Assembly (NCBI GenBank): GCA_009783355.1 | Contig: WRHH01000004.1 | Location: forward strand, 32,852-96,851 | DNA from: Synergistaceae bacterium | GTDB lineage: Bacteria; Synergistota; Synergistia; Synergistales; Aminobacteriaceae | DNA: 64,000 nucleotides | Reading direction: 5' to 3' | Shown: positions 6,105 to 58,126 of the stretch, in pieces | Numbering within the stretch: position 1 is the first letter of the stretch | Layout: each line of letters starts with the position of its first letter | Program-made: the position numbers and the translations under genes | Notes under the pieces: generated by a model | Databases searched by the model: none | The model's input: only the letters and a program-made list of their open reading frames with translations | Told to the model about the DNA's origin: nothing

Positions 6105-8240
6105 TCATACCGACAGAGAAAGCAGGTTACGGTAGGTCGGATACGGCCAAATTTCGTCCGAGACAATCAATTCAGCGGCGTCGCATACGGCGCGTATTGA
6201 ATTCATCAGTGGTATAACTTCATTCATAAGTAACGCAGCGCGTTCTCGCGCGCCGAGTACCGCCATCTTTTCTTTTAACGCCGAGAGTTTTTTAGCGTCA
6301 ACTATGAGAGCGGCCTTGAAACAGCCAATGTCGTGAATGTAATTTTTCAACGGCGCCGATTCTAAGAAGCCGATGCCGTCCAGCGCAGAGAGTGAGTTAC
6401 TCTCAAGGATGAGCTGTTTCGATATGGCGGGTATAATTCCCTCCCAGAGCATAGCGTGCAGTATTGACATCTCAATTTCAAACGCCCGCTCGAAGGAATC
6501 CATGCGTATATCGCACAATGTCTCAAGTTCAGATCCTTTATAAACACCCAAGTGTTCAAGCATTTCCCTATTCTTCGGCAGGAGGAAAAGATCAATCTTT
6601 TCAGGCATGCTTTCTGCCTGAATCAGCCCTCTGCGTCTTGCCTCAGCTTGCCATTCGCTTGTATAGGCGTCGCCTTCAAACAAAACGTCTCTGCCGCGCT
6701 TAACCGCTTCATTCACTGCATCTAACGCAACGTCGATGGGCTCCATGCCATTTGTTGCCCGCGCTTCAATCATCTCCGTTATTTGTTCAAGCCCCCAAGC
6801 CCAAATGGAAGCGAACATTGTCACAGGAAGCGCAATGGATTGTGAAGCGCCCGGCGCTCGGAATTCAAATTTATCTCCCGTGAAGGCGATTGGCGACGTC
6901 CTGTTGCGATCACTGTCAAATGGCGTGAGTTCAGGCAATTTGGATAGGCCGATATTCAATTGACCTTTTTCGGGCATCGTCAGGCCGGATTTGTCTATCC
7001 GCATTAAAAGCTCCGTCAGCGTCTGCCCTAGATAAATACTCATGATGCTTGGAGGCGCCTCGTGTCCGCCCAGGCGCAACAAGTTCCCCGCCGTGGCGAT
7101 GCTTGCCTGCAATAAACTGTGGTACTCCGATACGCCCAACACAAGCCCGGCAATGAATGTAAGGAAGACGGCGTTCCGCCTGTGGTTGTTCGAAGCTTTA
7201 AGAAGATTTCGCCCCTCGTTGTCCATCAGAGATATGTTTATGTGTTTCCCGCTGCCGTTCATTTCGGCAAAAGGTTTTTCATGGAATAATAGACGTAGCT
7301 CATGCTTACGCGCCAGTTTCCGCATCGTTTCCATGAGGATCTGGTTTTGGTCGCACGCCATGTTGGCATCGGAGTAAAGCGGCGCGAACTCGAACTGACA
7401 ACGCGCGGATTCATTATGCCGCGTCATGACCGGCACGCCCAACTGCGCAAGGTCGCGTCCCACGTCATCCATATAATCGAGAACTCTCGGAGGGATTGCT
7501 CCCATGTAATGATGGTCAAGTTTTTGATCTTTAGCGGGTTTGGCGCCTATTAAGGTGCGCCCGCAGAATCGGATATCCGGCCTCAATTGCGCGCGCGGCC
7601 GATCTAAAAGGAAGTATTCCTGTTCTGCGCCTATAGTCAGTTTGACGCTATGTACTCCACGTTGCCCTAAGAGTTTCAGCAATTTCAGGGAACGTTCTTC
7701 TATCGCTGACAGTGCGCGAAGCAGGGGAATTTTATGATCTAGCGGGGTGCCGTCATAAGAGAGGAAAACTGATGGAATACAGAGTGTTCCGCCCTTTTCA
7801 GTTTTTACGATGAACGCGGGGCTGGTTGGATCCCACGCGCTGTAACCGCGCGCTTCGAACGTAGAGCGCCTCCCGCCCGAAGGAAAGGAAGAAGCGTCCG
7901 GGTCGCCCTGAACCAGATCTTTTCCGCGAAAAACGTCTATGGGTGTCCCATCCGGCGATGGAAGGGTGAACGATAAATGTTTTTCAGCCGTAAGCTCCGT
8001 CATGGGATGGAACCAGTGTGCCCAATGCGTTGCTCCCTTGCTGAGCGCCCAGTCCTTCATTGCTGTTGCGACTATGTCCGAAAGTGAGGCGTCCAAAGCA
8101 TGTCCGTCTTCTATTGCCGAAATAAGACGCTCGTAAACATCACTGTTTAATTTTTCCCGCATGACTTTACGGTCGAATACCAGTGAACTAAAAATATCTC
8201 TCATTTTTGGATAACTTTGATTTTGCAACATAATGAACAC
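6105..8240 (-). CDS. glnA: Glutamine synthetase type III
   Basis: 711 aa, the characteristic GSIII length. N-terminal FDRKVMREKL...DVYERLI and the central NESARCQFEFAP region resemble GlnN/GSIII. Confidence 0.75.
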   Translation of the reverse strand: MFIMLQNQSYPKMRDIFSSLVFDRKVMREKLNSDVYERLISAIEDGHALDASLSDIVATAMKDWALSKGATHWAHWFHPMTELTAEKHLSFTLPSPDGTPIDVFRGKDLVQGDPDASSFPSGGRRSTFEARGYSAWDPTSPAFIVKTEKGGTLCIPSVFLSYDGTPLDHKIPLLRALSAIEERSLKLLKLLGQRGVHSVKLTIGAEQEYFLLDRPRAQLRPDIRFCGRTLIGAKPAKDQKLDHHYMGAIPPRVLDYMDDVGRDLAQLGVPVMTRHNESARCQFEFAPLYSDANMACDQNQILMETMRKLARKHELRLLFHEKPFAEMNGSGKHINISLMDNEGRNLLKASNNHRRNAVFLTFIAGLVLGVSEYHSLLQASIATAGNLLRLGGHEAPPSIMSIYLGQTLTELLMRIDKSGLTMPEKGQLNIGLSKLPELTPFDSDRNRTSPIAFTGDKFEFRAPGASQSIALPVTMFASIWAWGLEQITEMIEARATNGMEPIDVALDAVNEAVKRGRDVLFEGDAYTSEWQAEARRRGLIQAESMPEKIDLFLLPKNREMLEHLGVYKGSELETLCDIRMDSFERAFEIEMSILHAMLWEGIIPAISKQLILESNSLSALDGIGFLESAPLKNYIHDIGCFKAALIVDAKKLSALKEKMAVLGARERAALLMNEVIPLMNSIRAVCDAAELIVSDEIWPYPTYRNLLSLSV

Positions 8241-13366: not shown

Positions 13367-13999
13367 ATGCCGGATATTATGAAAGTGTTTGCAAAAATTG
13401 ATGATATCGAATTTGTCGAACTTTGCACGGAGGGCTCGGGACAGCAGATAGCCGACGCTATAAAAAACGGCGCGAACGCGAACGCGAAGTATAAGGACGG
13501 TAAAAAGACAGCGCTTATGGTAGCCGGAGCTCTAAACTCCGACCCGGAAGCGATAGTTGTACTTGTTAGCGCGGGCGCCGACGTCAACGCGAAGGGCGAA
13601 ATAGGCTTGACGCCTCTCATGTGGGCGGCGGGCGGCAACTCCAACCCGGAGGCGGTAACGGCGCTCGTTAATGCGGGCGCTTCAATCGACGCGAAGAATA
13701 TATTTGGAAATACGCCACTGATGGAGGCGGCGCAAAACAATTCAAATCCTGAAGTAATAACAACCCTCATCAAAGCTGGCGCGGATGTCAACGCGAACAA
13801 CAACAATGGATGGACGCCTGTCATGCTGGCGGCTGCGCGAGACTCCGTCAGTCCTGAAATAATAACAATCCTTATCAATGCAAGAGCAGACCTGAAAGCA
13901 AGGAATTGCTTCAATAAAACAGCGTTAGACTACGCGAAAGAGAATGATAGACTTATGGATACAGATGTTTTGAAGAAACTTGAGGAAGCAAGCTGGTAG
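13367..13999 (+). CDS. Ankyrin repeat protein (cytoplasmic)
   Basis: Five or more ANK repeats (G.TPLM.AA...VV..L...GADVNA). The Ala-rich minus-strand ORF 13327..13914 is its antisense shadow. Confidence 0.75.
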   Translation: MPDIMKVFAKIDDIEFVELCTEGSGQQIADAIKNGANANAKYKDGKKTALMVAGALNSDPEAIVVLVSAGADVNAKGEIGLTPLMWAAGGNSNPEAVTALVNAGASIDAKNIFGNTPLMEAAQNNSNPEVITTLIKAGADVNANNNNGWTPVMLAAARDSVSPEIITILINARADLKARNCFNKTALDYAKENDRLMDTDVLKKLEEASW

Positions 14000-14024
14000 C
14001 ACAATGCACAATGAAAGACAAAGG
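13999..14024. repeat. Heptamer array (GCACAAT x2) plus AAAGACAAAGG box
   Basis: Sits directly after the ankyrin stop. Same family as arrays at 28094, 48279, 54559, 55970. Confidence 0.6.
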
Positions 14025-14075
14025 CCCATGAACTAAAGTTCACCACGATGAATGAAATTTGGGAACCTCTTGGTA

Positions 14076-14176
14076 AAGACTACTGGATTACCATGAAAGT
14101 AATCAAAAGGCAAAAACTAAAAGACAACTGAATTGCCGCGCCGCAAAAAGACGCGGCTCGCAAAGACGTTAATTAG
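14076..14176. repeat. Structured intergenic repeat element, copy A (81-bp core about 95% identical to 48710..48790)
   Basis: aagactactggattaccatgaaagtaatcaaaaggcaaaaactaaaagacaactgaattgccgcgccgcaaaaagacgcgg. Contains hairpins gattac/gtaatc and gccgc/gcggc. A related direct repeat ctggattatcacgaaagtaataaaaag lies at 14337. Confidence 0.7.
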
Positions 14177-14454
14177 GCAAGTTTCGTTCACTGTGGCGAG
14201 TGAAACTCGTGACCATTGCTTCGTCCCAAAAAGACGCTCCTCGCAAAGACGCTGCCCATTACACGTCTTTGCGACCGCGAGTGTAGCGTGGCGGGAAGCA
14301 ATCCAGAAGGCTCATAACATTGATAAGTTAATATTACTGGATTATCACGAAAGTAATAAAAAGTTATATTAAAAATATTTTATGGTAAAGACAAAAAGTA
14401 AATCGTATTGAGTAATTATTTTATTTATATCATTAATATAACATATTTGTTATA

Positions 14455-14853
14455 ATGCAAAATGAAAAGGAGTCAAAATGGATGTATGAAGTTATCTTTT
14501 ATAAAGATAAAAACGGCAATGAGCCAATAAAAGGAGTAGAAAATATGAGAAAGATCAATGACATAGAGTACACAACATTAAATGATCTCTGGGATGATCC
14601 GGCATTACTCACAGCGGACGACAAAGATCGTATAAATTTTGAAGTATCCCTTATTGGCAAACTGATTGAAGCAAGAGAATTGAAGGGATTAACTCAAAAG
14701 GAACTTGCAGATAAGGCAGGTATAAAACAATCAGCCGTTGCGAGGTTGGAGAGCTTGAAAGCAACTCCACAGATTGATACTCTTTTCAAAGTCCTAAAAC
14801 CATTAGGTTACACTTTAGAGATTGTCCCTGACAGAAAACAGATGCAAAAATAA
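14455..14853 (+). CDS. HigB-like toxin remnant (about 30 aa) fused in frame to an intact XRE-family HTH antitoxin (HigA-like)
   Basis: N-terminus WMYEVIFYKDKNGNEPI matches the start of RelE/HigB (Gp49-like) toxins. From MRKINDIEY onward, LKGLTQKELADKAGIKQSAVARLE is an HTH_XRE. AAAGGAG sits 8 nt before the internal ATG at 14545. Confidence 0.6.
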   Translation: MQNEKESKWMYEVIFYKDKNGNEPIKGVENMRKINDIEYTTLNDLWDDPALLTADDKDRINFEVSLIGKLIEARELKGLTQKELADKAGIKQSAVARLESLKATPQIDTLFKVLKPLGYTLEIVPDRKQMQK

Positions 14854-14894
14854 ATGTTCATTAATAGAACAGCGTAAAAATTATAATATACAAG

Positions 14895-15647
14895 GTGATA
14901 ACGATGCATAGAGATAGCGATTATTATTACAGAGTTCTTGGACTTGAGCCGGGCGCCTCGCGGGCTGAGGTCAAGGCTGTGTATCGCCACTATGTAAAGC
15001 TTTATCACCCGGATCGTAATAAAATGCTGGCTGCAGCGGTAGTATATAAGGAAATGCGCGAAGCTTACGAGGCGCTGATTAATTCGACACTTCCCGATAG
15101 TACGGGTGCAGATTTAAAGCGTGACTCGTCAAATTGGGCGGCGAACTCCCCGAACGCTAGTGCGCGTGCGGGGCAGGACGATTCACAGGCAAAACATACG
15201 GCGAATTCCGCAGGCTCAAATGAATGGAATGCAGGCCATAATCGCAGCTCCTCAAATCGGGTTGAATGGACTTCCGTAGAATGGGAAAAGTGGGAAAGTG
15301 CTTTTTCAGGTATACAATTAGAGAATGTGGTTATAGCTTTTATGCTTATTTGTTTATCCAGCGGCTTGCCCCTGTCTAGTAAAGTCAGAACTCAAATAAC
15401 GCCGCCATACGTTGCACTGGCCTTCTTTTATCATGTAATTTCATGGATAATTTTCTATTTTTTAAGGCATTTTTATGCCCCTTCAATGTGGCCTATTTTC
15501 ACTAAATTTATTGCGGGGGCTATATACGGGATTGTTCTGGTAATTTTGATAGCTTGCTGTTATGAGGTAAAGGCAACAAATTTTTTAGTTGCGGGAGTCA
15601 CGGCAGCAGCGTCAGCATGGGTACTAATGGCTGATTTTGATTTCTGA
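14895..15647 (+). CDS. DnaJ (J-domain) protein with a low-complexity linker and C-terminal transmembrane segments
   Basis: YYRVLGLEPGASRAEVKAVYRHYVKLYHPDRN (HPD motif). The last roughly 110 aa are hydrophobic. Confidence 0.75.
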   Translation: MITMHRDSDYYYRVLGLEPGASRAEVKAVYRHYVKLYHPDRNKMLAAAVVYKEMREAYEALINSTLPDSTGADLKRDSSNWAANSPNASARAGQDDSQAKHTANSAGSNEWNAGHNRSSSNRVEWTSVEWEKWESAFSGIQLENVVIAFMLICLSSGLPLSSKVRTQITPPYVALAFFYHVISWIIFYFLRHFYAPSMWPIFTKFIAGAIYGIVLVILIACCYEVKATNFLVAGVTAAASAWVLMADFDF

Positions 15648-15680
15648 CTTGTTAATGCATGAAAGGAGTTGTCTTGTATA

Positions 15681-15791
15681 ATGTCCAAAATTCTATCAGG
15701 AGTTCATGAAGCCATAGGTAACACTCCAATAGTCAATTTGAGCAGGATTACGACAAAAGTAGATGAGGAGCGGAAGGAAACATATTGGTAA
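15681..15791 (+). pseudogene. cysK: Cysteine synthase (CysK) N-terminal fragment, 36 codons, with its own RBS
   Basis: MSKILSGVHEAIGNTPIVNLSRI matches the CysK N-terminus (IGNTPLVRLN), then diverges. Stop TAA abuts the next ATG (TAAATG). Confidence 0.55.
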
Positions 15792-16631
15792 ATGGAAATT
15801 TTCTATAAACTTGCCAAAGCGCTTGTAATACTGGTAATAATTGTTGTTGCGCTGCGCTTTTTTATAATGCGGATAATTTTTCAGCCTTCGGGGCATATAG
15901 CGTGGACTCCTGACATGGGCGGCTTTGATTACGAGAATGTTTACTTTGCAGCTTCGGACAGCGTAAAAATAAACGGCTGGTATGTCAATTGCGAGAACAG
16001 CAGAGGGACTGTCCTGTTTTTTCACGGCAACGCCGGGAATATTTCCCATAGGGGAGACACTATTAGAATTTTCAATTCTCTCGGCATGTCGGTGTTTATA
16101 ATAGACTACAGAGGCTATGGCGAAAGCAAAGGTTCCCCGTCCATAAATGGCGTTGGCCAAGACGCTTTAGCGGCATGGAATTGGCTCGTATCGGAGAAAA
16201 GAATCCCAGCTCAAAAGATACTGATTTTCGGACGCTCGCTCGGTGGGGCGGTAGCGGTCGAACTCATGAAGCACGTTAGGCCTAAGGCGGCAATTCTTGA
16301 GTCCACATTTTCGGCTCTATCCGACATGGCGGGGTTCGATTTTCTAAGCCCAATAGTGAGTTTGCTTGTCGGCGGAGCGTGGAACTCCGCTCAAACCGCT
16401 GTGAATATAGATACCCCAACTCTTTGCATCCACAGCCCTGAAGATAATGTTGTTCCGTATCGGCTTGGCAAAAGGCTTTATGAAGCATTGGCGGGGGAAA
16501 AACAATTCTTTGAAATAAGAGGCGATCATAATTACGGCTTCATTTTATCAATGCCCGAATACAAAGGTCGGCTTGACGAGTTTCTAACCGTTCATTATGG
16601 AGAGCGCTTTTTCGACGAAGTTGTAAAATAA
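15792..16631 (+). CDS. Alpha/beta hydrolase with N-terminal membrane anchor
   Basis: GRSLGGAVA nucleophile elbow (GxSxG), HGNAGN, and a C-terminal His region. Confidence 0.7.
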   Translation: MEIFYKLAKALVILVIIVVALRFFIMRIIFQPSGHIAWTPDMGGFDYENVYFAASDSVKINGWYVNCENSRGTVLFFHGNAGNISHRGDTIRIFNSLGMSVFIIDYRGYGESKGSPSINGVGQDALAAWNWLVSEKRIPAQKILIFGRSLGGAVAVELMKHVRPKAAILESTFSALSDMAGFDFLSPIVSLLVGGAWNSAQTAVNIDTPTLCIHSPEDNVVPYRLGKRLYEALAGEKQFFEIRGDHNYGFILSMPEYKGRLDEFLTVHYGERFFDEVVK

Positions 16632-22982: not shown

Positions 22983-23078
22983 TTTTGATAATCCTTTCTT
23001 GCTTTTCGCAAAAATATACAAGGCATGGATTTACACGCCTTGCTTTCACAATTATATCTCCCTTGGTGAGAATTAGTA

Positions 23079-23198
23079 GGGGCTGTAACAAAAGCTGGCG
23101 GCAGAATGCCGTCCCTACAACATATTGTGCTCACAATACCAAACAACCACTATATATTGTGGTTTGGCTAGCCAATATACTACTTTTGTTACAGCCCC
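23079..23198. mobile_element. MITE-like element copy 1 (16-bp perfect TIR GGGGCTGTAACAAAAG)
   Basis: Left end ggggctgtaacaaaag, right end cttttgttacagcccc. An internal hairpin ggcggcagaatgccg and the whole element recur, reverse-complemented, at 48479..48618. Confidence 0.75.
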
Positions 23199-23439
23199 TT
23201 TTCAAAGATAGTTTGAGATGAGCTTATTAATCTTGCGGAAGAAGATATTTCAGATGATGAAATCCGGGAAGAAATTGGTATAATATTTGATATGGCAACA
23301 CATGCGAGTTTATGGCGTTTCAAAAATCAAGCGCTAAGCTTTGTATCATGAAATTCATTTAAACCTGAATCAATGTAAAGAGATTTGTACAATAAAGTTA
23401 TAACGGCTCTAAAAAATTGTCAATGGAGATGATGTATCA

Positions 23440-28730: not shown

Positions 28731-28960
28731 CTAAAAATCATTACAAGTATACAAATGTGCAAGCTGTTGGAGGTTGTAAGACCACCAAATAACCTTTTTT
28801 CGACGCGACAAATTTTTTCGCTTCAATGCCTTATCAATATCCACGCCGCCTAACGCGTTCATCATTGCCTTAAGCTCATACGCTATCGCATCTGCTTCAG
28901 CTTTGCTGTTTTCAGCGGCAAGAGCCGTCAAAATCTTTCTTTAGCTTCCAGTTTTTGCTA
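28731..28960 (-). pseudogene. Deletion-derivative remnant of the flotillin/NAD-kinase-like operon
   Basis: 28771..28830 matches 30559..30617 (3' end of the NADK-like gene). 28834..28956 matches 31633..31757 (flotillin C-terminal coding). The fused ORF reads LTALVAENSKAEADA...ALGGVDID. Confidence 0.75.
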
Positions 28961-30318: not shown

Positions 30319-30563
30319 TAGATGTGATTTCCTCTCTGTATTGATCTTTCCATTTTATATCATAAACACGCAGATGGGCGTACTGCTGTTGTTCCTATGC
30401 ATGCGTCAGGTATAGATAGAACGCTGATAAGAAAAATTCTGAAAATTATGATATGTCTATTGACGACTATAACAACAGAGTATAAACATTTTCTGTGGAG
30501 TAGTAAATATCTTTCGTAATCGGATCCGAATTCATGTTGGAAATTCTGCTGTATTCGTGGTTG

Positions 30564-31496
30564 TCAGACCACTAAATAGCCTTTTTTCGACGCGACAGAT
30601 ATTTTCGCTTCAATACCTGAATTGAATCGTAAAAAATCATGCTCAATTCCATCGCTGAAAATTACCCCGCCTTCCGGCATCTGCGAAATCACCAATAATG
30701 GAGAGTTGGTAATTGTCCCAAAAACAATACCTGCGCCTGTGGTATTGCTGTGGAAAGGTTCGCGTACCGAGTAATATAGAAACTCGCTGTCCCATTCGGG
30801 GAAAGTAATGCTAGAGTTTATGATTTTGCCGGTAATAACTCCGGCTATTCTGCTGGCGCCTGCAATTACGCTTTTTAACCAGCCGGTTGAACCAAGCCCC
30901 GTGGAAACAATAATTCCGCTAGATGATTGATTCTCCTCCTGTCCGTTGATTTTAATTTTGTATCTTGCCGAAACATGGGTTTGCCTTCCGATAAAAAAGT
31001 CGTTAACGGCCAATAAGCTTTGCCCATCATTCAGTTCGGCTATTGCCATTGAAATTTCTTTTTTTTGCCTGCGATTACCTAGCACTTCCCGAACAACGAC
31101 GGGCACATCAGCACAGCGAAAAGGGAGCAGCACACCGTCATATCTGGCAGGATCGGGGTTTATGGCAATAAGCGGCTGACCATTCAGGTATTTCAGCGTG
31201 TTTGCTACTAAGCCGTCCTGACCGATGACAACGACTATGTCATCTTCACTGAACATGAAATTGGGCGCGTATTCTCTATCGATTAATTGAACCCGAGCCA
31301 AATTTTTCAAGTGGTTAATTGAAGCGAAAACCGATTCTTTATAAATCCTGTCCTCTTCAACATACTCCTTGATATCTCCGCCCATTTTTTCCACATAAAA
31401 GGCTGCTTGAGCCATATTATTGAACTTTTTTACCAATTCATCCGCGCGAGTTGACCTTGTTATGACGACGATTTTGCGTTCGGGTACATAACTCAT
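30564..31496 (-). CDS. ATP-NAD kinase-fold protein (COG3199-like)
   Basis: VVVIGQDGLVAN (GGDGT-like), NDG, and SSGIIVSTGLGSTGW (the DGlivSTPtGSTAY equivalent). Start overlaps the flotillin stop (ATGA). Confidence 0.55.
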   Translation of the reverse strand: MSYVPERKIVVITRSTRADELVKKFNNMAQAAFYVEKMGGDIKEYVEEDRIYKESVFASINHLKNLARVQLIDREYAPNFMFSEDDIVVVIGQDGLVANTLKYLNGQPLIAINPDPARYDGVLLPFRCADVPVVVREVLGNRRQKKEISMAIAELNDGQSLLAVNDFFIGRQTHVSARYKIKINGQEENQSSSGIIVSTGLGSTGWLKSVIAGASRIAGVITGKIINSSITFPEWDSEFLYYSVREPFHSNTTGAGIVFGTITNSPLLVISQMPEGGVIFSDGIEHDFLRFNSGIEAKISVASKKGYLVV

Positions 31497-32509
31497 GGCG
31501 TCATCATTTCACGAATCAAATCGGGGGTGATATTCAATTGGCCGATTCTTTCCGCTTTACCCGCCAGATTCTGGAACGCATTTGCTATTAGAGTTTGCGG
31601 CTGCATGCCAATCACAGTCAATGCTTTGATGACGTCAATATCCACGCCGCCTAACGCGTTCATCATTGCCTTAAGCTCATACGCTTTAGCGTCTGCTTCA
31701 GCTTTGCTGTTTTCAGCGACAAGCGCCGTCAAAATCTTTCTTTTTTCTTCCAGTTTGATTTCCGCATCAAGCTGCTCATTTTTCAATTCATTTTGCCTTC
31801 TCATTTCAGCTTGTTCGGCATTGAGCTTAGTCTCGCGAACCTGCCAGCGTTTGTTTTCAACGGCGATTTCCGTATTGTACTCGTTTTCCTTGACGCCGCG
31901 CTCTTGTTCAATGGAGGCGTTTCTACGTTCATAAATAGCGTCGTCGGCCATTTTTAAGATTTTTTCTCTGGTTTCCGCCTCTAGTGCCCTTGAGGTTTCT
32001 TTGTTTGGTAGAACTGACAGAACCGTCAAACCCATGATCTCGATACCCAGCAATTGAATTTCTTCATTTCGCCGCAAGTCTTCAAGAATGCTCTTTGCTA
32101 GAGTTTCACTGGAGCGGATGGCGTCAGAAAGTTTTAAACCCTCCAAATGCTTTTTTGCCATGACGCGAACCAGATTACTTATTCTTACGGGAAGCTTTTC
32201 CGGGTCGTCGGATATGTAACTCTTTTTCCAACCTCTGACATCCAGTGTGAAATTAAGGAGTTTGATTAAATTTTTGTTATCTACTATACGATATGTGACC
32301 TGGCCTTGAATGGAAACCGACTGAAAATCCGCTGTGGCTTCTTCGAACATGAAAGGACAGTCGTCGCTCGCAATAGGCGCCACGACAATTGATGTGGTGG
32401 GAGCGTAGTAAAAAAAGGAAATTCCCGCGCCTTCTTTCACTACATGACCGTTTTTGAATTTAAGAACGTACTCGTTTGGTTGAAATTTGACGTAATGAAG
32501 CCCGAACAT
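31493..32509 (-). CDS. SPFH/band-7 flotillin-like protein (YqiK-like)
   Basis: SPFH domain N-terminus, and a long Glu/Ala/Lys-rich coiled-coil with a flotillin C-terminal pattern. Confidence 0.7.
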   Translation of the reverse strand: MFGLHYVKFQPNEYVLKFKNGHVVKEGAGISFFYYAPTTSIVVAPIASDDCPFMFEEATADFQSVSIQGQVTYRIVDNKNLIKLLNFTLDVRGWKKSYISDDPEKLPVRISNLVRVMAKKHLEGLKLSDAIRSSETLAKSILEDLRRNEEIQLLGIEIMGLTVLSVLPNKETSRALEAETREKILKMADDAIYERRNASIEQERGVKENEYNTEIAVENKRWQVRETKLNAEQAEMRRQNELKNEQLDAEIKLEEKRKILTALVAENSKAEADAKAYELKAMMNALGGVDIDVIKALTVIGMQPQTLIANAFQNLAGKAERIGQLNITPDLIREMMTP

Positions 32510-34271: not shown

Positions 34272-34420
34272 AAAATAATATGTGGGACGGTAATCCCATA
34301 ACACTTGAACAAGGCGGCATTGACAGGATTTTCAATACCGTCAATCTGTTTAACAAAGATAACGCGCATATTTTTCGGCGGCAAAGCAACAACGCGAATA
34401 GATGGAGGGTATTATATTTG
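34272..34420 (+). pseudogene. Duplicated 3' fragment of the phzF-like gene
   Basis: About 145 bp, roughly 90% identical to 36228..36365. Encodes MWDGNPITLEQGGIDRIFNTVNLF. Confidence 0.7.
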
Positions 34421-35483: not shown

Positions 35484-36365
35484 ATGAAAAAATATGATTA
35501 CAAAAAAGTTGACGCTTTTACTTCCAATAACTCGTTAGGAAATCCTGCGGCTTGCGTTTATTTAAACGAAGGACAGTCATTGGCTGAGGATGAAATGCTA
35601 AGCATCGCGAAACAGCATAAAGGTTTTGTTTCGGAAGTTGTTTACTGCACAAATAATGGCAGTTGCGGTTTTGACTTGGCGTATTATTCATCGGAATGCG
35701 AAGTCCCGTTTTGCGGCCATGGCACAATTGCATGTATGTATTCGTTGATAAAAGATTCTCCTGAATTGTTGAAACAGTCGGAGATAATTATTCATACCCG
35801 AACCAAAGGAAGCCTCATAATTTACAATAAAATAACTGAACAGGACGCAGTTTACATTTCAGCGCCCGAGCCGGTATATTCATCTGTTCCTATATCTTTA
35901 GAAGCTATTATTGATTGCTTAAGCGTGGATATATCGGCGATTTCAGACGCTTATCCTGTTGATTTTATCGACGCGGGAAACAGAACTCTAATCATACCGA
36001 TAAGAGGCTTGGAAGACGAAATAAACATCTTCCCGAATGAGCAAACCTTAAAAGAATTCTCGTTGAATAACGGCATAGACGTTATTTTGATTTTCTGCAC
36101 AGAAGTAATGGACGAAGCGCATTTTGCGCATACGAGGGTGTTCGCGGCGAAATACGGCTATCTTGAAGACCCCGCTACAGGCTCTGCAAATAGCGCTTTC
36201 GGCTATTATCTTCTGAAAAATAATATGTGGGACGGCAATCCCATAACACTTGAACAAGGCGGCATTGACAGGATTTTCAATACCGTTAATCTGTTTCACA
36301 AAGATAATAGAATATTTTTCGGCGGCAAAGCGACAACGCGAATAGAAGGGGTTTATTATATTTAA
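35484..36365 (+). CDS. PhzF-family isomerase-like protein
   Basis: KVDAFTSNNSLGNPAACVYL, FCGHGTIA. Start at MKKYDYK, with a GGGGGAGAG RBS. Confidence 0.75.
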   Translation: MKKYDYKKVDAFTSNNSLGNPAACVYLNEGQSLAEDEMLSIAKQHKGFVSEVVYCTNNGSCGFDLAYYSSECEVPFCGHGTIACMYSLIKDSPELLKQSEIIIHTRTKGSLIIYNKITEQDAVYISAPEPVYSSVPISLEAIIDCLSVDISAISDAYPVDFIDAGNRTLIIPIRGLEDEINIFPNEQTLKEFSLNNGIDVILIFCTEVMDEAHFAHTRVFAAKYGYLEDPATGSANSAFGYYLLKNNMWDGNPITLEQGGIDRIFNTVNLFHKDNRIFFGGKATTRIEGVYYI

Positions 36366-48269: not shown

Positions 48270-48278
48270 AAAAATACA

Positions 48279-48326
48279 GTGGCGAGTGGCGAGAAAAGAC
48301 AAAAGACAAAAGACAAGACAAAAGAT
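48279..48326. repeat. Heptamer arrays (GTGGCGA x2, AAAAGAC x4) directly after the livF stop
   Basis: gtggcgagtggcgagaaaagacaaaagacaaaagacaagacaaaagat. Confidence 0.7.
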
Positions 48327-48478: not shown

Positions 48479-48618
48479 AGGCGGCTGTAACAAAAGTAGT
48501 ATATTAGCTAGTCGAACCACAATATATAGTGGTCAAGCGGCATAATGAACACAATATATTGTAGGGGCGGCATTCTGCCGCCAGCTTTTGTTACAGCCCC
48601 GCTTTTGTTACAGCCCCC
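48479..48618. mobile_element. MITE-like element copy 2 (inverted relative to copy 1; right TIR tandemly duplicated)
   Basis: ggctgtaacaaaag ... ggggcggcattctgccgcc ... cttttgttacagccccgcttttgttacagcccc. Reverse complement aligns with 23079..23198. Confidence 0.75.
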
Positions 48619-48709
48619 TAACTAAGCTATATTTGACAACTCGAAGTCTTGAGGATTTTCTTTTGTCTTTAACTCCACACTCCACACCAATGTCATTAAG
48701 TTAAGTAAA

Positions 48710-48830
48710 AAAGACTCTGGATTACCATGAAAGTAATCAAAAGGCAAAAACTAAAAGACCACTGGATTGCCGCGCCGCAAAAAGACGCGGGCGTAAAGAG
48801 CGGCTTCGCCGAGGCGCAAAGACGATTAGG
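48710..48830. repeat. Structured intergenic repeat element, copy B
   Basis: 81-bp core with 4 mismatches against 14076..14156, followed by a related cgcaaagacg(a)ttagg segment. Confidence 0.7.
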
Positions 48831-48943
48831 GTGTATTTTGCGATGCAATTTTGTGTCCATTGGGGTGTTATATGTCAAAAAAGCTTCGCCTATTATATGC
48901 ACATAGCAGAAAATGCTTTGAGTTTTAATAGGAGGTCGAAACT

Positions 48944-53324: not shown

Positions 53325-54601
53325 ATATGAGCGCAAGTATTTTAATGAAACTCAAAGTATTTACCCATTATCTGCCGCTTCTCCTCAAGGGCGAAATGTC
53401 ATTCAGGCGTTTTGTTGCGTTTATGCGTAGGATGTCGTTTTTCCTCTCGAAAATGGGTCATAATAAATTTGTCAAATTTAACGGAGGCACGCGGTTCGGT
53501 TTCTATATCCCGACTTACCCGTCGAGGGCTTTTTGCACGACGACGGATAAATTCAGGACTTTCGAAGGTAAATTTCCATGTATCAACGTTCTCCTGTCCG
53601 TTACGTCGGCGTGTATGCACAAATGCGAGTATTGCTATCAGAGGCGGGACGCAGGCGCGGACATGGATCTTGACTTGCTTATAGCAACGGCGCGGAAACT
53701 TCAGGATATGGGTATAGCGCTTTTCAGTATTGAGGGCGGCGAGCCGTTTCTGAGGTACGACAGGCTGAAAGCTTTGTGCAACGCTATCGATGACCGTTCG
53801 GAGATTTGGGTCAACTCAAACGGCTGGGGCATGACCGTAGAGAGATTAAAAGAGCTCCGGATAGCAGCTGTGACTTTTTCTCTGCACCATCCCGAGCCCG
53901 AGGCTTTTAACAAGTTCATGGGGAACGAGCAGGCATGGGCCCACATGGAACAAGGCATCAAAGCGTGCCATGAAGCGGGCGTCCCCGTGACGTTCAACAC
54001 CTGTCTGATGAAAGAGGCGTTCTACGACGGAACTTTCGAGAAGGTCATGGATTACGCAAAAGAACAGGGAGTCCTGATGATACAGTTGATAAAACCAAAA
54101 CCTGCGGGCGGCTGGCTCTTAAATGACGAACTCCTCTTTTCGGAGGAGGACATGAAGGCTGCAAAAGTGAAGATCCACATGTACAATAAGGACAAAAAGT
54201 ACTCGGCGTTCCCCGCTATCAGCGCGCAAATAATCGAAGAGCAGCCGGACGTGTTTGGCTGCACTGCGGGCGGTACGGACAGGTTTTATATTAACGCAAA
54301 GGGCGACGTCCAGCCGTGCGAGTTTCTGAACATCTCGTTCGGCAATATCGCAGACGAAAAATTCGAGGACATCTACGACAGGATGAGAGCATGTTTTGAA
54401 ACTCCGGGAGAACGCATCCTGTGCGAAGAGGCGGCAAAAAAGATAGCAGCGCTATACAAACAGCATAATTTGAACTCCCTGCCGCTTCCGCCCGAACTCT
54501 CGAAGCAGGTCTACGAAGAATGGGACAGAGGCGCGGCAACGGAGTTGTATAGAATAACAGTTGCGAGTGGCGAGTTGCGAGTTGCGAGTGAAAGACCTTA
54601 A
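53321..54601 (+). CDS. Radical SAM protein with SPASM-like C-terminal domain
   Basis: CMHKCEYC (CxxxCxxC). C-terminal Cys cluster GCTAGGTDRFYINAKGDVQPCEF. The last 13 codons (VASGELRVASERP) are encoded by the heptamer array. Confidence 0.75.
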   Translation: MNMSASILMKLKVFTHYLPLLLKGEMSFRRFVAFMRRMSFFLSKMGHNKFVKFNGGTRFGFYIPTYPSRAFCTTTDKFRTFEGKFPCINVLLSVTSACMHKCEYCYQRRDAGADMDLDLLIATARKLQDMGIALFSIEGGEPFLRYDRLKALCNAIDDRSEIWVNSNGWGMTVERLKELRIAAVTFSLHHPEPEAFNKFMGNEQAWAHMEQGIKACHEAGVPVTFNTCLMKEAFYDGTFEKVMDYAKEQGVLMIQLIKPKPAGGWLLNDELLFSEEDMKAAKVKIHMYNKDKKYSAFPAISAQIIEEQPDVFGCTAGGTDRFYINAKGDVQPCEFLNISFGNIADEKFEDIYDRMRACFETPGERILCEEAAKKIAALYKQHNLNSLPLPPELSKQVYEEWDRGAATELYRITVASGELRVASERP

Positions 54602-54686
54602 AAACAGTTGCGAGTTGCGAGTGGCGAGTGAAAGGCAAAAGACAGAGGCAAGAGGCTTCCATTGAACATTGTGCATTGAACATTGA
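54559..54686. repeat. Heptamer arrays (GTTGCGA/GTGGCGA x about 8; CATTGAA x4) with a GAAAGGCAAAAGA box
   Basis: gttgcgagtggcgagttgcgagttgcgagtgaaagacc...gttgcgagttgcgagtggcgagtgaaaggcaaaagacagagg...cattgaacattgtgcattgaacattgaa. Confidence 0.7.
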
Positions 54687-55236: not shown

Positions 55237-55971
55237 ATGGAGGTGGAAATTATGTACACTGCTAAGAGAAAAATAATCATGGCAATATTTTGCACGGCGC
55301 TGCTCGTTGCCTTCGGGGCGGGTTTTGCGGGTCGAAGTTCGGCAGCGGTAGGAGACGTTATCAAACTCGGCGGATTTGATTGGCGCGTGCTCGAAGTGAA
55401 GGATGGAAACGCCCTCATCATAAGCGACAAAATATTGTCGAAGGGCGCGTACAATATACCGGATAAAGGTGTGTTGTACGATTCATTGGGTTCAGTCTGG
55501 CAGGATACCCCCGTTAAATGGGAAGAATGTACTTTGCGGCAATATCTGAACGGGCAGTTTTATGATTCGACTTTCTCAAATGAAGAAAAGGGACGAATAG
55601 TCGAGACGACGATAGTAAACAATGATAACCCATGGTTCGGTATGGCGGGCGGTAACGACACCACGGACAAAGTGTTTTTGTTGAGCCTTGAGGAAGTAGT
55701 GTTATATTTCGGCGACAGCGGAGAATTGGGGAACCGGCCAAAAGACGCTGACACTATAAACGACAGCTTCAATGAGAAGAGGATTGCAGAAACGCTGGAC
55801 GGCAATGCTTGCAGATGGCTTCTTAGGTCTCCCGGCCTCTTTCACCGCATGTGCGACAGCAACCACGTCTATGCCGGTTGTGTCGCTGTGAACGGATATC
55901 TCTCCGTAATAGGCGAATATGTCCATAATGAATACAGCGGGATTCGCCCCGCGATGTGGATAAAACAATAA
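55237..55971 (+). CDS. Secreted paralog of the BlaR1-like sensor domain (DUF6273-like extracytoplasmic domain)
   Basis: Signal peptide. About 60% identity to residues 340-548 of the 56480 gene. Shared blocks include GDVIKLGGFDWRVL, SNEEKGRIVET, KVFLLS, WLLRSPG and RPAMW. Confidence 0.65.
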   Translation: MEVEIMYTAKRKIIMAIFCTALLVAFGAGFAGRSSAAVGDVIKLGGFDWRVLEVKDGNALIISDKILSKGAYNIPDKGVLYDSLGSVWQDTPVKWEECTLRQYLNGQFYDSTFSNEEKGRIVETTIVNNDNPWFGMAGGNDTTDKVFLLSLEEVVLYFGDSGELGNRPKDADTINDSFNEKRIAETLDGNACRWLLRSPGLFHRMCDSNHVYAGCVAVNGYLSVIGEYVHNEYSGIRPAMWIKQ

Positions 55972-55980
55972 AGACAAAGC

Positions 55981-56019
55981 ACAATGCACAATGTTCAACG
56001 ATTGTGCATTGTTTTTTTT
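55981..56019 (+). terminator. Strong rho-independent terminator built from the GCACAAT heptamer and its inverted copy
   Basis: acaatgcacaat-gttcaacg-attgtgcattgt, then TTTTTTTT. Confidence 0.85.
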
Positions 56020-56108
56020 GATAATGATATAAGACATACGTCATTTTCTATTACTTGACAACATTATAAGACATATGTATTATATGTAACAAATGGAGGT
56101 GGTTTTAT

Positions 56109-56480: not shown

Positions 56481-58126
56481 TGCAGGGCTTTATCGTCACA
56501 TTGATGATTTGTTCGGTCACCATGTCGATGATTGCGCTCGTTTACATGGCAGCATCCCCGTTTCTGGCGAAACGATATTCCGCGAAATGGCGCTATTATA
56601 CATGGCTCGTCGTTGTTATTGGGCTTATTATCCCATTCCGGCCGCAATGGGGCAGCGCCGTTATCCGGGTTTTTATCCCGGGCGAAAATGCACCCGTCAT
56701 TCAGGTAGGAAGCCGGATAGTCGCCGGGCAGATTGAGAGCCAAATATCAGTACAGATAGAGAGCGAAGCTGATGTTTCCACCACGCTCACGGTTGGAAAA
56801 ACAGCGGTTCCCTCATTTTGGCGGCTTGTTCCGTGGTGGAGGATAGCGGCGGCGGTATGGCTGGCTGGATTGATGGTTACCCTCGTTTATCACATAATAA
56901 AATACTATTGCTTTGCGAAAATGGTGAGGCGCTGGAGCGAAAAGGCCACGAACGAAAAAACGCTTGACTTGCTGCAAAGACTGAAATCCGAGATGGGAAT
57001 ATTAAAGCCCATCGGCCTTTATCAGTGCCCGTGCATTGGCAGCCCTATGATGATAGGATTAACAAATCCACGAATACTACTGCCGAAAACCGGTATAAAG
57101 CAAAATGAACTCCACTTTATCCTCAAACACGAGCTTGTGCATTTAAAGCGGAATGACCTGTACTACAAATGTCTGGTACTTGCCGCAACCGCCATTCATT
57201 GGTTCAATCCTTTCGTCTATATTATTGCAAAAGCAATTGAAGTGCAATGTGAATTGTCCTGCGACGCCGAGACAGTGCGAAGCGCTGACGCTGGAACGCG
57301 CCGACATTACACCGAAGCTATTATCAGTTTTGTGAAATATAGTTCAAATCTGAATACAGCATTATCGACTAATTTTCAAAGAGGCCGAAAAGGCATGATG
57401 AAAAGGATATTTTCCATCATGGACACCGGCAATAAAAAGGCAGGTATCGCAATCTTCTGTGCTGCGCTGCTCGTCACTCTTGGAACGGGCTTTGCCGTCT
57501 GCTACGGCGCCCCGTATTCAGAGACGACTGTTGGCAGCGTTATGAAGCTCGGTGGGATTGACTGGCGCGTGCTTTTGGTGAAGGATGGAAAAGCCTTGGT
57601 TTTGAGCGATAAAATATTGTCGAAAAGGGCGTACAATGCGTCGGTTAATGACTGGCCGAATGGAACTGTGACATGGGAAGAATGCGATTTACGGCGTTAT
57701 CTGAACGGACAGTTTTTCGACACCGCCTTCTCAAATGAGGAAAAGGGGCGAATCGTCGAAACTGTGCTTGATAACAATAATAACCCCTGGTTTGCAACGG
57801 CGGGCGGTAGCGCTACCAAAGACAGAGTGTTTTTGCTGAGCATTGAGGAAGTTGTGCAATATTTGGGTAACAACGAGAAACTTGAAGCCCGGAATGACGG
57901 AACGTTTTTAATAAGTGACCGGTTCAATGAGAGACGAATAGCGCAAACGCTGGACGGCGAAGAGTGGAGATGGCTCTTACGGTCGCCCGGAATTTTATAT
58001 TACTCGTGCGGCGCCGCCCACGTCCATGCTGCTTGCGTCGCGGCAAACGGCGATCTGTCCGTTAGCGGCGAATACGTTAACAACAGCGGCGGCGGCGTTC
58101 GTCCCGCGATGTGGTTGACAATGTAA
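56480..58126 (+). CDS. BlaR1/MecR1-like M56 peptidase signal transducer. Its extracytoplasmic sensor is a DUF6273-like domain rather than a penicillin-binding domain.
   Basis: N-terminal TM segments, and HELVHLKRND (HExxH of M56). The C-terminal 210 aa are paralogous to the 55237 gene product. Confidence 0.75.
   Translation: MQGFIVTLMICSVTMSMIALVYMAASPFLAKRYSAKWRYYTWLVVVIGLIIPFRPQWGSAVIRVFIPGENAPVIQVGSRIVAGQIESQISVQIESEADVSTTLTVGKTAVPSFWRLVPWWRIAAAVWLAGLMVTLVYHIIKYYCFAKMVRRWSEKATNEKTLDLLQRLKSEMGILKPIGLYQCPCIGSPMMIGLTNPRILLPKTGIKQNELHFILKHELVHLKRNDLYYKCLVLAATAIHWFNPFVYIIAKAIEVQCELSCDAETVRSADAGTRRHYTEAIISFVKYSSNLNTALSTNFQRGRKGMMKRIFSIMDTGNKKAGIAIFCAALLVTLGTGFAVCYGAPYSETTVGSVMKLGGIDWRVLLVKDGKALVLSDKILSKRAYNASVNDWPNGTVTWEECDLRRYLNGQFFDTAFSNEEKGRIVETVLDNNNNPWFATAGGSATKDRVFLLSIEEVVQYLGNNEKLEARNDGTFLISDRFNERRIAQTLDGEEWRWLLRSPGILYYSCGAAHVHAACVAANGDLSVSGEYVNNSGGGVRPAMWLTM

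Follow-up and report, generated by a model that had tools for sequence, protein, structure and literature searches.

The 81-nt intergenic unit that occurs twice in the analysed window (a 64,000-nt stretch of a Synergistaceae contig) is probably the best-conserved block of a mosaic repeat family that is lineage-specific, non-coding and dispersed through the intergenic regions of one termite-gut Synergistaceae species, and thus a fairly ordinary kind of bacterial repeat. The family is multi-copy and dispersed, mosaic in structure and absent from relatives, its window copies are located at breakpoints, and it is under no detectable constraint on coding capacity or RNA structure.

The two near-identical 81-base stretches reported in a preliminary description of the window are real, and differ by two substitutions and one single-base indel (copy A, 14076-14156; copy B, 48710-48790). 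Both substitutions, read directly and recomputed, fall within the 74-nt core (14083-14156 versus 48717-48790), at 14126 (A/C) and 14131 (A/G), and the indel lies at the left edge of the unit, which reads AAGACTA in copy A and AAAGACT in copy B; because of this indel, an ungapped comparison of the 81-mers yields seven mismatches. The repeat search of the window returned the pair as 74 nt at 97% identity, and with gapped blastn the match grows to 92 nt (93.5%). The 27-mer CTGGATTACCATGAAAGTAATCAAAAG is found at 14083 and 48717 and, with three mismatches, at 14337, where a repetition of the first 27 bp had been claimed; 0 of 100 shuffled sequences contained any match to it. The hairpins and palindromes described earlier are likewise all present, with gattac-N7-gtaatc and gccgc-N8-gcggc inside the unit, and the palindrome ttcactg-tggcg-agtgaa and the inverted repeat cgcaaagacg/cgtctttgcg (14158-14179 / 14253-14274, 22 nt, 82%) near copy A, where a further inverted repeat of 11 nt is perfect (14241-14251 / 14264-14274). 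The setting was also described correctly: both copies occupy long intergenic gaps (455 nt for A, 674 nt for B) downstream of heptamer arrays, the nearest of which end 62 nt before copy A (GCACAAT x2.1) and 22 nt upstream of copy B (ACTCCAC x2.3).

Each copy contains the box AAGAC-N1-2-CTGRATT twice, 44-45 nt apart, and the box is confined to the copies; the 81-nt unit hence consists of an internally duplicated sub-repeat of ~45 nt. Both copies also show strong clustering of the hexamer AAAGAC, with nine sites per 400 nt at copy A compared to at most four in 200 shuffles. The units and the blocks around them are listed below, where L-numbers (L033, L039, L048, L054 etc.) denote metagenome contigs and L033 and L048a represent one locus in two samples.

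14076-14156, plus strand: copy A of the 81-nt unit, consisting of two ~45-nt sub-repeats that each start with AAGAC-N2-CTGRATT; sub-repeat 1 (box at 14076) carries the hairpin GATTAC-N7-GTAATC, sub-repeat 2 (box at 14121) the hairpin GCCGC-N8-GCGGC
48710-48790, plus strand: copy B of the 81-nt unit, with sub-repeat boxes at 48711 and 48755
13999-14013, plus strand: heptamer array (GCACAAT)x2.1, beginning at the stop codon of the ankyrin gene
14014-14061, plus strand: block M6 (aaagacaaaggcccatgaactaaagttcaccacgatgaatgaaattt), between the heptamer array and copy A, 90% identical in L048b
14157-14222, plus strand: tail of block M3 and block M4 (ctcgcaaagacg ttaattaggcaagtttcgTTCACTgtggcgAGTGAAactcgtgaccattgcttc), ~94-97% identical to L033/L048a and L039
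14215-14251, plus strand: degenerate second copy of sub-repeat 2, 84% identical to 14132-14168
14253-14274, minus strand: inverted tcgcaaagacg box, pairing with 14158-14179 and 14241-14251, private to copy A
14315-14396, plus strand: block M5, comprising a variant (CTGGATTATCACGAAAGTAATAAAAAG) of the initial 27 nt together with flanks of its own
48278-48325, plus strand: heptamer arrays (AGTGGCG)x2.3 and (AAAAGAC)x4.9, beginning 9 nt past the stop codon of the ABC ATPase gene
48783-48830, plus strand: block M3 (gcgggcgtaaagagcggcttcgccgaggcgcaaagacgattagg), continuing copy B, ~90% identical to L033/L048a and L048b

Further copies exist beyond the window pair. Among metagenomes, the 19-mer seed of hairpin 1 (GGATTAYCAYGAAAGTAAT) identified real copies in L033/L048a, L039 and L054, and a second place in L048 (L048b) was found via neighbouring blocks. 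The family is present in at least six genomic contexts with unrelated genes, a count from a metagenome scan that missed contigs known to carry the pattern. The same seed gave only 20 single hits in 185,579 species genomes, at chance level and with extensions of at most 19-22 nt, and viral, plasmid and phage collections contained no real match to the unit. A diverged copy underlies the annotated hypothetical protein MCL1874661.1; the 198-kb contig that encodes it agrees with a Synergistaceae metagenome-assembled genome (MAG) in its locus tags and accession series. The series is shared with the QueD protein of L054 (MCL1875978.1), and the diverged copy most likely belongs to this same MAG. L033, L048 and L039 come from the same or similar samples as the window, share its heptamer style and are likely derived from its own species; their proteins are absent from the NCBI MAG. 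Extension past the right end of the window (L067) revealed no further copy of the unit.

Alignment of the copies with MAFFT identified the longest form of the element in L033, where it is contiguous over ~275 nt. This fullest form consists of two ~45-nt sub-repeats, each a box followed by a short hairpin, that are succeeded by the GC-richer blocks M3 and M4. Copy A and L039 are devoid of a 43-nt and a 22-nt segment, the latter being the core of block M3, and the first sub-repeat (M1) of L048b is degenerate. Copy B also lacks the 43-nt segment and, with the M3 tail and M4 missing, is truncated before M4, where the native leader of the UbiA gene begins (conserved from ~48828-48845). Copy A contains additional parts in the form of the degenerate sub-repeat 2 (14215-14251), the inverted cgcaaagacg box and block M5. 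Block M5 stands alone in L054 (97% identity) and is split around the element in L039, flanking it on both sides, with M4 joined to M5 at an ATT microhomology. Block M6 of L048b is inverted relative to M2/M3, and the pair of arrays found at 48278-48325 adjoins L048b as well. The copies hence differ by block loss, truncation, 43-nt and 22-nt internal indels, inversion and re-joining, and the blocks that they share are ~95-97% identical. The composite element of about 280 bp proposed around copy A has a counterpart in the contiguous ~275-nt version of L033, but copy A itself is a rearranged mosaic and not one intact unit. Contigs L002, L039 and L066 terminate inside these repeat blocks.

The native leader of the UbiA operon contains three spaced GGGGYGT-type boxes of its own (48828-48900, ggggtgtattttg / ggggcgtattta; L057 600-700, ggggtgctgta), which may represent a real regulatory site.

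The preliminary description had also put the unit forward as a candidate small RNA, and a small RNA gene or structured UTR element with two functional hairpins is a reading that we consider very unlikely. The two short hairpins are predicted in both copies, and a C-to-T change at the top of hairpin 1 (L039, M5) keeps a G-U pair on the plus strand, but the unit matched no Rfam family even at permissive thresholds (E up to 10), and at the gathering threshold the whole window contains only one tRNA. Fold z-scores of -1.4 to -2.1 for the unit, and of -0.4 and 0.0 for the two strands of the fullest copy (L033), are unremarkable; the z-score of -3.4 obtained for the 331-nt region of copy A is due to the inverted box at 14253-14274, which is private to this copy. 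Neither a sigma-70-like promoter nor an intrinsic terminator was predicted flanking the unit, which is furthermore not conserved in relatives. Across nine sequences, none of the 11 tested pairs changed on both sides, and the search for compensatory changes suggested earlier instead uncovered stems that break in diverged copies, an outcome that the preliminary description had itself named as refuting. In the M5 copies the base pair of hairpin 1 no longer forms, and at least two of the six hairpin-1 pairs are changed in the diverged copy behind the protein P0372, as deduced from its translation. Hairpin 2 has lost its closing pair in copy B, is broken at three of five pairs in the 14215 copy and is split by the 43-nt insert in L033 and L048b. 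The two substitutions between A and B are located in an unpaired linker and are uninformative on the stems either way.

A match to the Rfam family group-II-D1D4-3 near copy A was rejected as its score of 29.2 bits stays below the threshold of 32 and as it overlaps the ankyrin coding sequence, contains many non-canonical pairs and disappears at a wider search range. Apart from this sub-threshold D1-D4 match, nothing indicates a group II intron: the searches reported no family of domain V/VI, and the surroundings contain no ORF for a reverse transcriptase.

Another reading is a decayed small coding gene that starts at the ATG in the loop of hairpin 1, such as one for a type I toxin or the 5' portion of a gene from a mobile element, which we hold to be very doubtful indeed. 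In L033 the frame is open for 76 codons, reaching the point where the next gene starts, and in copy B for 59 codons, and gene callers have annotated such ORFs (P0372, P0373, P0374). However, it is closed by a stop after 12 codons in copy A, six in L039 and five in L048b, M5 has ACG in place of the ATG, and the 43-nt and 22-nt indels are not multiples of three. The ATG lacks a preceding Shine-Dalgarno sequence, and Pfam returned no hit for the ORF. When the chance ORF of copy B was searched against 1.84 billion representative proteins, the only real matches were two short ORFs, each of them a translated further copy of the element. Two longer protein matches, P0370 (a TPR-repeat protein) and P0371 (internally repetitive), were dismissed as false positives in which weak repeated matches are summed.

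The JGI protein P0373, 42 aa in length, runs across copy A (L002/L003) with the TGA at 14129-14131 read as tryptophan, and its 325-nt coordinates do not fit 42 codons; it looks like an annotation oddity on contigs that end in repeats.

The DnaK of the window is 100% identical to a protein encoded on a 101-kb contig of an NCBI Synergistaceae MAG; the next relatives by DnaK are uncultured Synergistaceae (89-98%), followed by Fretibacterium (~80%). Contigs from JGI 3300002505 and ENA ERZ27257320 are 100% identical to the window and therefore contain no comparative information. No element was detected by blastn or nhmmer --max at the orthologous loci upstream of UbiA in relatives (L056-L060) or downstream of pyrD-ank in L061-L065, and an nhmmer --max search of 183 kb, of which ~70 kb belong to relatives, yielded nothing beyond the known copies. 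In all relatives whose UbiA shares 76-82% protein identity the upstream neighbour differs, and no trace of a block is visible. The nearest relative, L061 (~86% nucleotide identity), has kept pyrD and the ankyrin gene and contains another segment in place of window positions 13985-15679, which comprise the heptamers, M6, copy A, M5, an HTH gene and a DnaJ-domain gene. Both window copies are located at synteny breakpoints. As the copies are 95-97% alike compared to ~86% for orthologous genes of the nearest relative, the family spread or was homogenised after the lineages split. The suggestion of a mobile module thus holds to the extent that a dispersed, multi-copy, lineage-specific family occupies at least six contexts and is missing at the orthologous loci of relatives, but neither terminal inverted repeats nor a target duplication accompany it, and a comparison of filled and empty sites finds the element missing at both orthologous loci where, however, whole segments are replaced, so that no clean empty site is available.

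The region between pyrD-ank and the Hydrolase_4 gene (13985-15792) is a variable spot, occupied by the HTH and DnaJ-domain genes in the window, by a Fur-like pseudogene, rubrerythrin and a PALP (cysK-like) gene in L061, and by PALP only in other relatives; a ~110-nt remnant of the start of the PALP gene persists at 15680-15792 of the window. The HTH_3 (HigA-like) ORF in this spot (14455-14853) is preceded by ~20 in-frame codons (MYEVIFYKDKNGNEPI...), which we take to resemble the start of a Gp49/HigB-type toxin and which would suggest that the gene is an orphaned antitoxin; Pfam gave no support for this piece, which is very short.

The direct arrangement of the copies 34.6 kb apart could also mark attL/attR-like boundaries of a genomic island, a reading to which we give next to no credence. 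Two co-oriented copies of ~80-90 bp, and an interval with a tRNA-Gly gene and a toxin-antitoxin-like HTH gene, are consistent with such an island. The interval nevertheless contains core genes (hrcA-grpE-dnaK, molybdate and branched-chain amino-acid ABC transporters) and is itself in part syntenic in relatives, the gene tables hold no integrase, and further copies are found in other contexts; the island was ruled out by this gene content and by the extra copies. Three further candidates were discarded. A template/variable repeat of a diversity-generating retroelement (DGR), raised by the A of copy A at both A/B substitutions, is contradicted by the missing reverse transcriptase, by copies outside genes and by the intermediate form in L033; an invertible promoter, raised by the inverted repeat of copy A, by a repeat that is private to this copy and by the missing invertase; and an integron attC site by the missing R'/R'' core sites.

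Genomic context also bears on a cis-regulatory module, in which the AAGAC-N-CTGGATT boxes or GATTAC-N7-GTAATC would be sites for a lineage-specific DNA- or RNA-binding protein, with the downstream genes as its regulon. We regard this as unlikely, and it keeps some weight because five of six copies point in the same direction as their downstream gene. In addition, the L033 element directly abuts the ribosome-binding site of its downstream gene, inside a divergent promoter region, the box recurs at its 44-45-nt spacing in each copy and nowhere else, AAAGAC is strongly clustered, and the promoter-like TTATCA-17-TATATT of block M5 is kept in all three M5 copies. These features contrast with a set of unrelated downstream genes (encoding the HigA-like HTH protein, UbiA, a 248-aa protein, a 160-aa protein and a secreted protein), with the inverted orientation of L048b relative to both neighbour genes, and with the missing element upstream of the same genes in relatives. 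Furthermore, copy B is located upstream of, and not inside, the conserved native UbiA leader, blocks are freely lost among copies, and the identity of 95-97% spans whole blocks including the linkers, unlike the conservation of binding sites. A broader variant, which we rate as distinctly improbable, would treat the 81-nt unit, the AAAGAC/CTGGATT boxes and the heptamer arrays behind stop codons as one lineage-specific intergenic 'grammar', read by a dedicated nucleic-acid-binding system of termite-gut Synergistaceae (for example for 3'-end formation, termination or mRNA stabilisation) or serving as target/guide motifs of a single-strand transposase that inserts 3' of AAAGAC.

As a mosaic repeat family, the element would have spread recently within its lineage, via non-autonomous transposition or via recombination/gene conversion between short motifs (AAAGAC, CTGGATT, heptamers); the ragged, recombined blocks and the microhomology junction favour recombination/gene conversion among short motifs. 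No transposase, integrase or reverse transcriptase is listed in the gene tables within ~5-8 kb of either copy, and a transposase acting 3' of AAAGAC is a possible dispersal agent. Once dispersed, the copies could act as substrates for illegitimate and homologous recombination, and any effects on neighbouring genes, through hairpins in read-through transcripts or the promoter-like hexamers of M5, would be incidental, with no dedicated function. Counting against this explanation are the number of known loci, which is only about six, the missing transposase, integrase or reverse transcriptase, the co-orientation of five of six copies with the downstream gene, which a purely neutral repeat does not need, and that no clean pair of filled and empty alleles, terminal inverted repeats or target-site duplication was found.

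A second, MITE-like element of ~122 nt with perfect 17-nt terminal inverted repeats (AGGGGCTGTAACAAAAG) occurs at 23078-23199 (minus strand) and 48479-48619 (plus strand) of the window and at 6556-6679 of L067, beyond the right end of the window. Its copies are 86-87% alike, and the one at 48.5 kb, in which the right terminal repeat is tandemly doubled, lies 110 nt upstream of copy B. The two window copies are in inverted orientation and bracket ~25 kb (23.2-48.5 kb). In the relative L060 (DnaK 93%), dnaK-grpE-hrcA-tRNA is located directly beside the UbiA operon; this is the order that results from flipping the ~25-kb segment and therefore, on the basis of gene order, suggests that the two MITE-like copies recombined and thereby inverted the segment. 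Local duplications of 69-93% identity were identified at 28772-28954 (versus 30559-30618 and 31635-31756), 34272-34419 (versus 36217-36363) and 55356-55959 (versus 57538-58114), all in or beside genes without Pfam matches, the last pair in a BlaR1/DUF6273 region.

Small dispersed repeats influence how genomes rearrange, cause breaks in metagenome assemblies and are mistaken for genes, and one copy of the present repeat is annotated as a hypothetical protein in an NCBI MAG. With the family defined, termite-gut Synergistaceae would be better assembled and annotated, and the near-identity of its copies would make them a marker for recent genome dynamics. With its position at synteny breakpoints, beside a MITE-like element that brackets an apparent 25-kb inversion, the locus provides a compact case of repeat-driven rearrangement in an uncultured lineage; the repeat family opens no new biological principle.

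The repeat belongs to none of the BIME, BOX and STAR classes and lacks the features that define MITEs, while resembling each in part. BIMEs of enterobacteria and pseudomonads are intergenic, multi-copy, non-coding mosaics of short motifs with small GC-rich hairpins that act as recombination substrates, and their constituent REPs are GC-rich imperfect palindromes of 20-40 nt that alternate in orientation, occur in >100 copies and are associated with a RAYT transposase (PMC2817692). The element described here is likewise an intergenic, multi-copy, non-coding composite whose block make-up varies by locus and which would act as a recombination substrate. Unlike REPs, it consists mostly of direct, A-rich blocks with hairpins of 5-6 bp, has no sequence similarity to them and no RAYT near its copies, the gene tables around which contain no (Y1) transposase, with ~110 kb of DNA from this species covered; its blocks follow one another in direct order except for the inverted box of copy A and M6 of L048b.

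BOX elements of pneumococci (boxA-boxB(n)-boxC) are modular, species-restricted and nearly absent in related species, with modules that may be missing or multiplied and with chance ORFs, and have been viewed as parasitic DNA whose influence on co-transcribed genes is incidental (PMC3049150). Modularity, lineage restriction, variable modules and chance ORFs across large copies are shared with the present family; in contrast to the defined terminal modules and extensive secondary structure of BOX, its ends are ragged, its folds are no better than those of shuffled sequence, and no sequence similarity exists between the two. The STAR element of staphylococci is an interspersed intergenic direct repeat with a short box spaced by tens of nucleotides and with loci that differ between species (PMC3532100). 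The box spacing of 44-45 nt in every full copy falls within the ~40-60 nt that we took as the mark of such elements, a likeness of organisation only, as the box sequences are unrelated. The box of STAR is a GC-rich 14-mer in variable tandem numbers. Copies of the present element, on the other hand, contain only two boxes each, and their spacers are as conserved as the boxes.

MITEs such as Correia/NEMIS, ERIC and RUP are non-autonomous intergenic elements of <300 nt that are lineage-restricted and occur in near-identical copies (PMC3184786, PMC10969869). In small size, intergenic position, lineage restriction and near-identity of copies the unit resembles them, but the defining terminal inverted repeats and target-site duplication are missing: its ends (CTGGATTACC... 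/ ...GTGACCATTGCTTC) form no terminal inverted repeat and share only short direct similarity (TTACCATG / TGACCATT), and inspection by eye of the flanks of A, B, L033 and L039 revealed no target-site duplication. AAAGAC precedes three copies, with no matching duplication after them.

Tandem heptamer arrays are found at 13999, 28095, 48278-48325, 54559-54629, 55974, 2480 and 62470 of the window and at 7347-7387, 13637 and 14402 of L048. They comprise varied types (GCACAAT, AGTGGCG/AGTTGCG, AAAAGAC, TTACAAA, TCCCTAA and others) and frequently terminate with GTGAAAGAC or ATGAAAGRC; a terminator-like hairpin is formed at 55980-56020 by an inverted heptamer pair followed by T8. Heptamer tandem repeats of cyanobacteria (STRR) were reportedly described by Mazel and colleagues in 1990. 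TAACTGA heptamer repeats are known from Beggiatoaceae (PMC4679880). Unlike those of either group, the arrays of this Synergistaceae host start 0-10 nt after stop codons and not mainly upstream of starts. Like them, the arrays before both copies lie between genes and comprise several types of tandem heptamer; they are neighbours of the 81-nt unit and not the unit itself, which shares a common vocabulary with them (AAAGAC, GTGGCGAGTGAAA).
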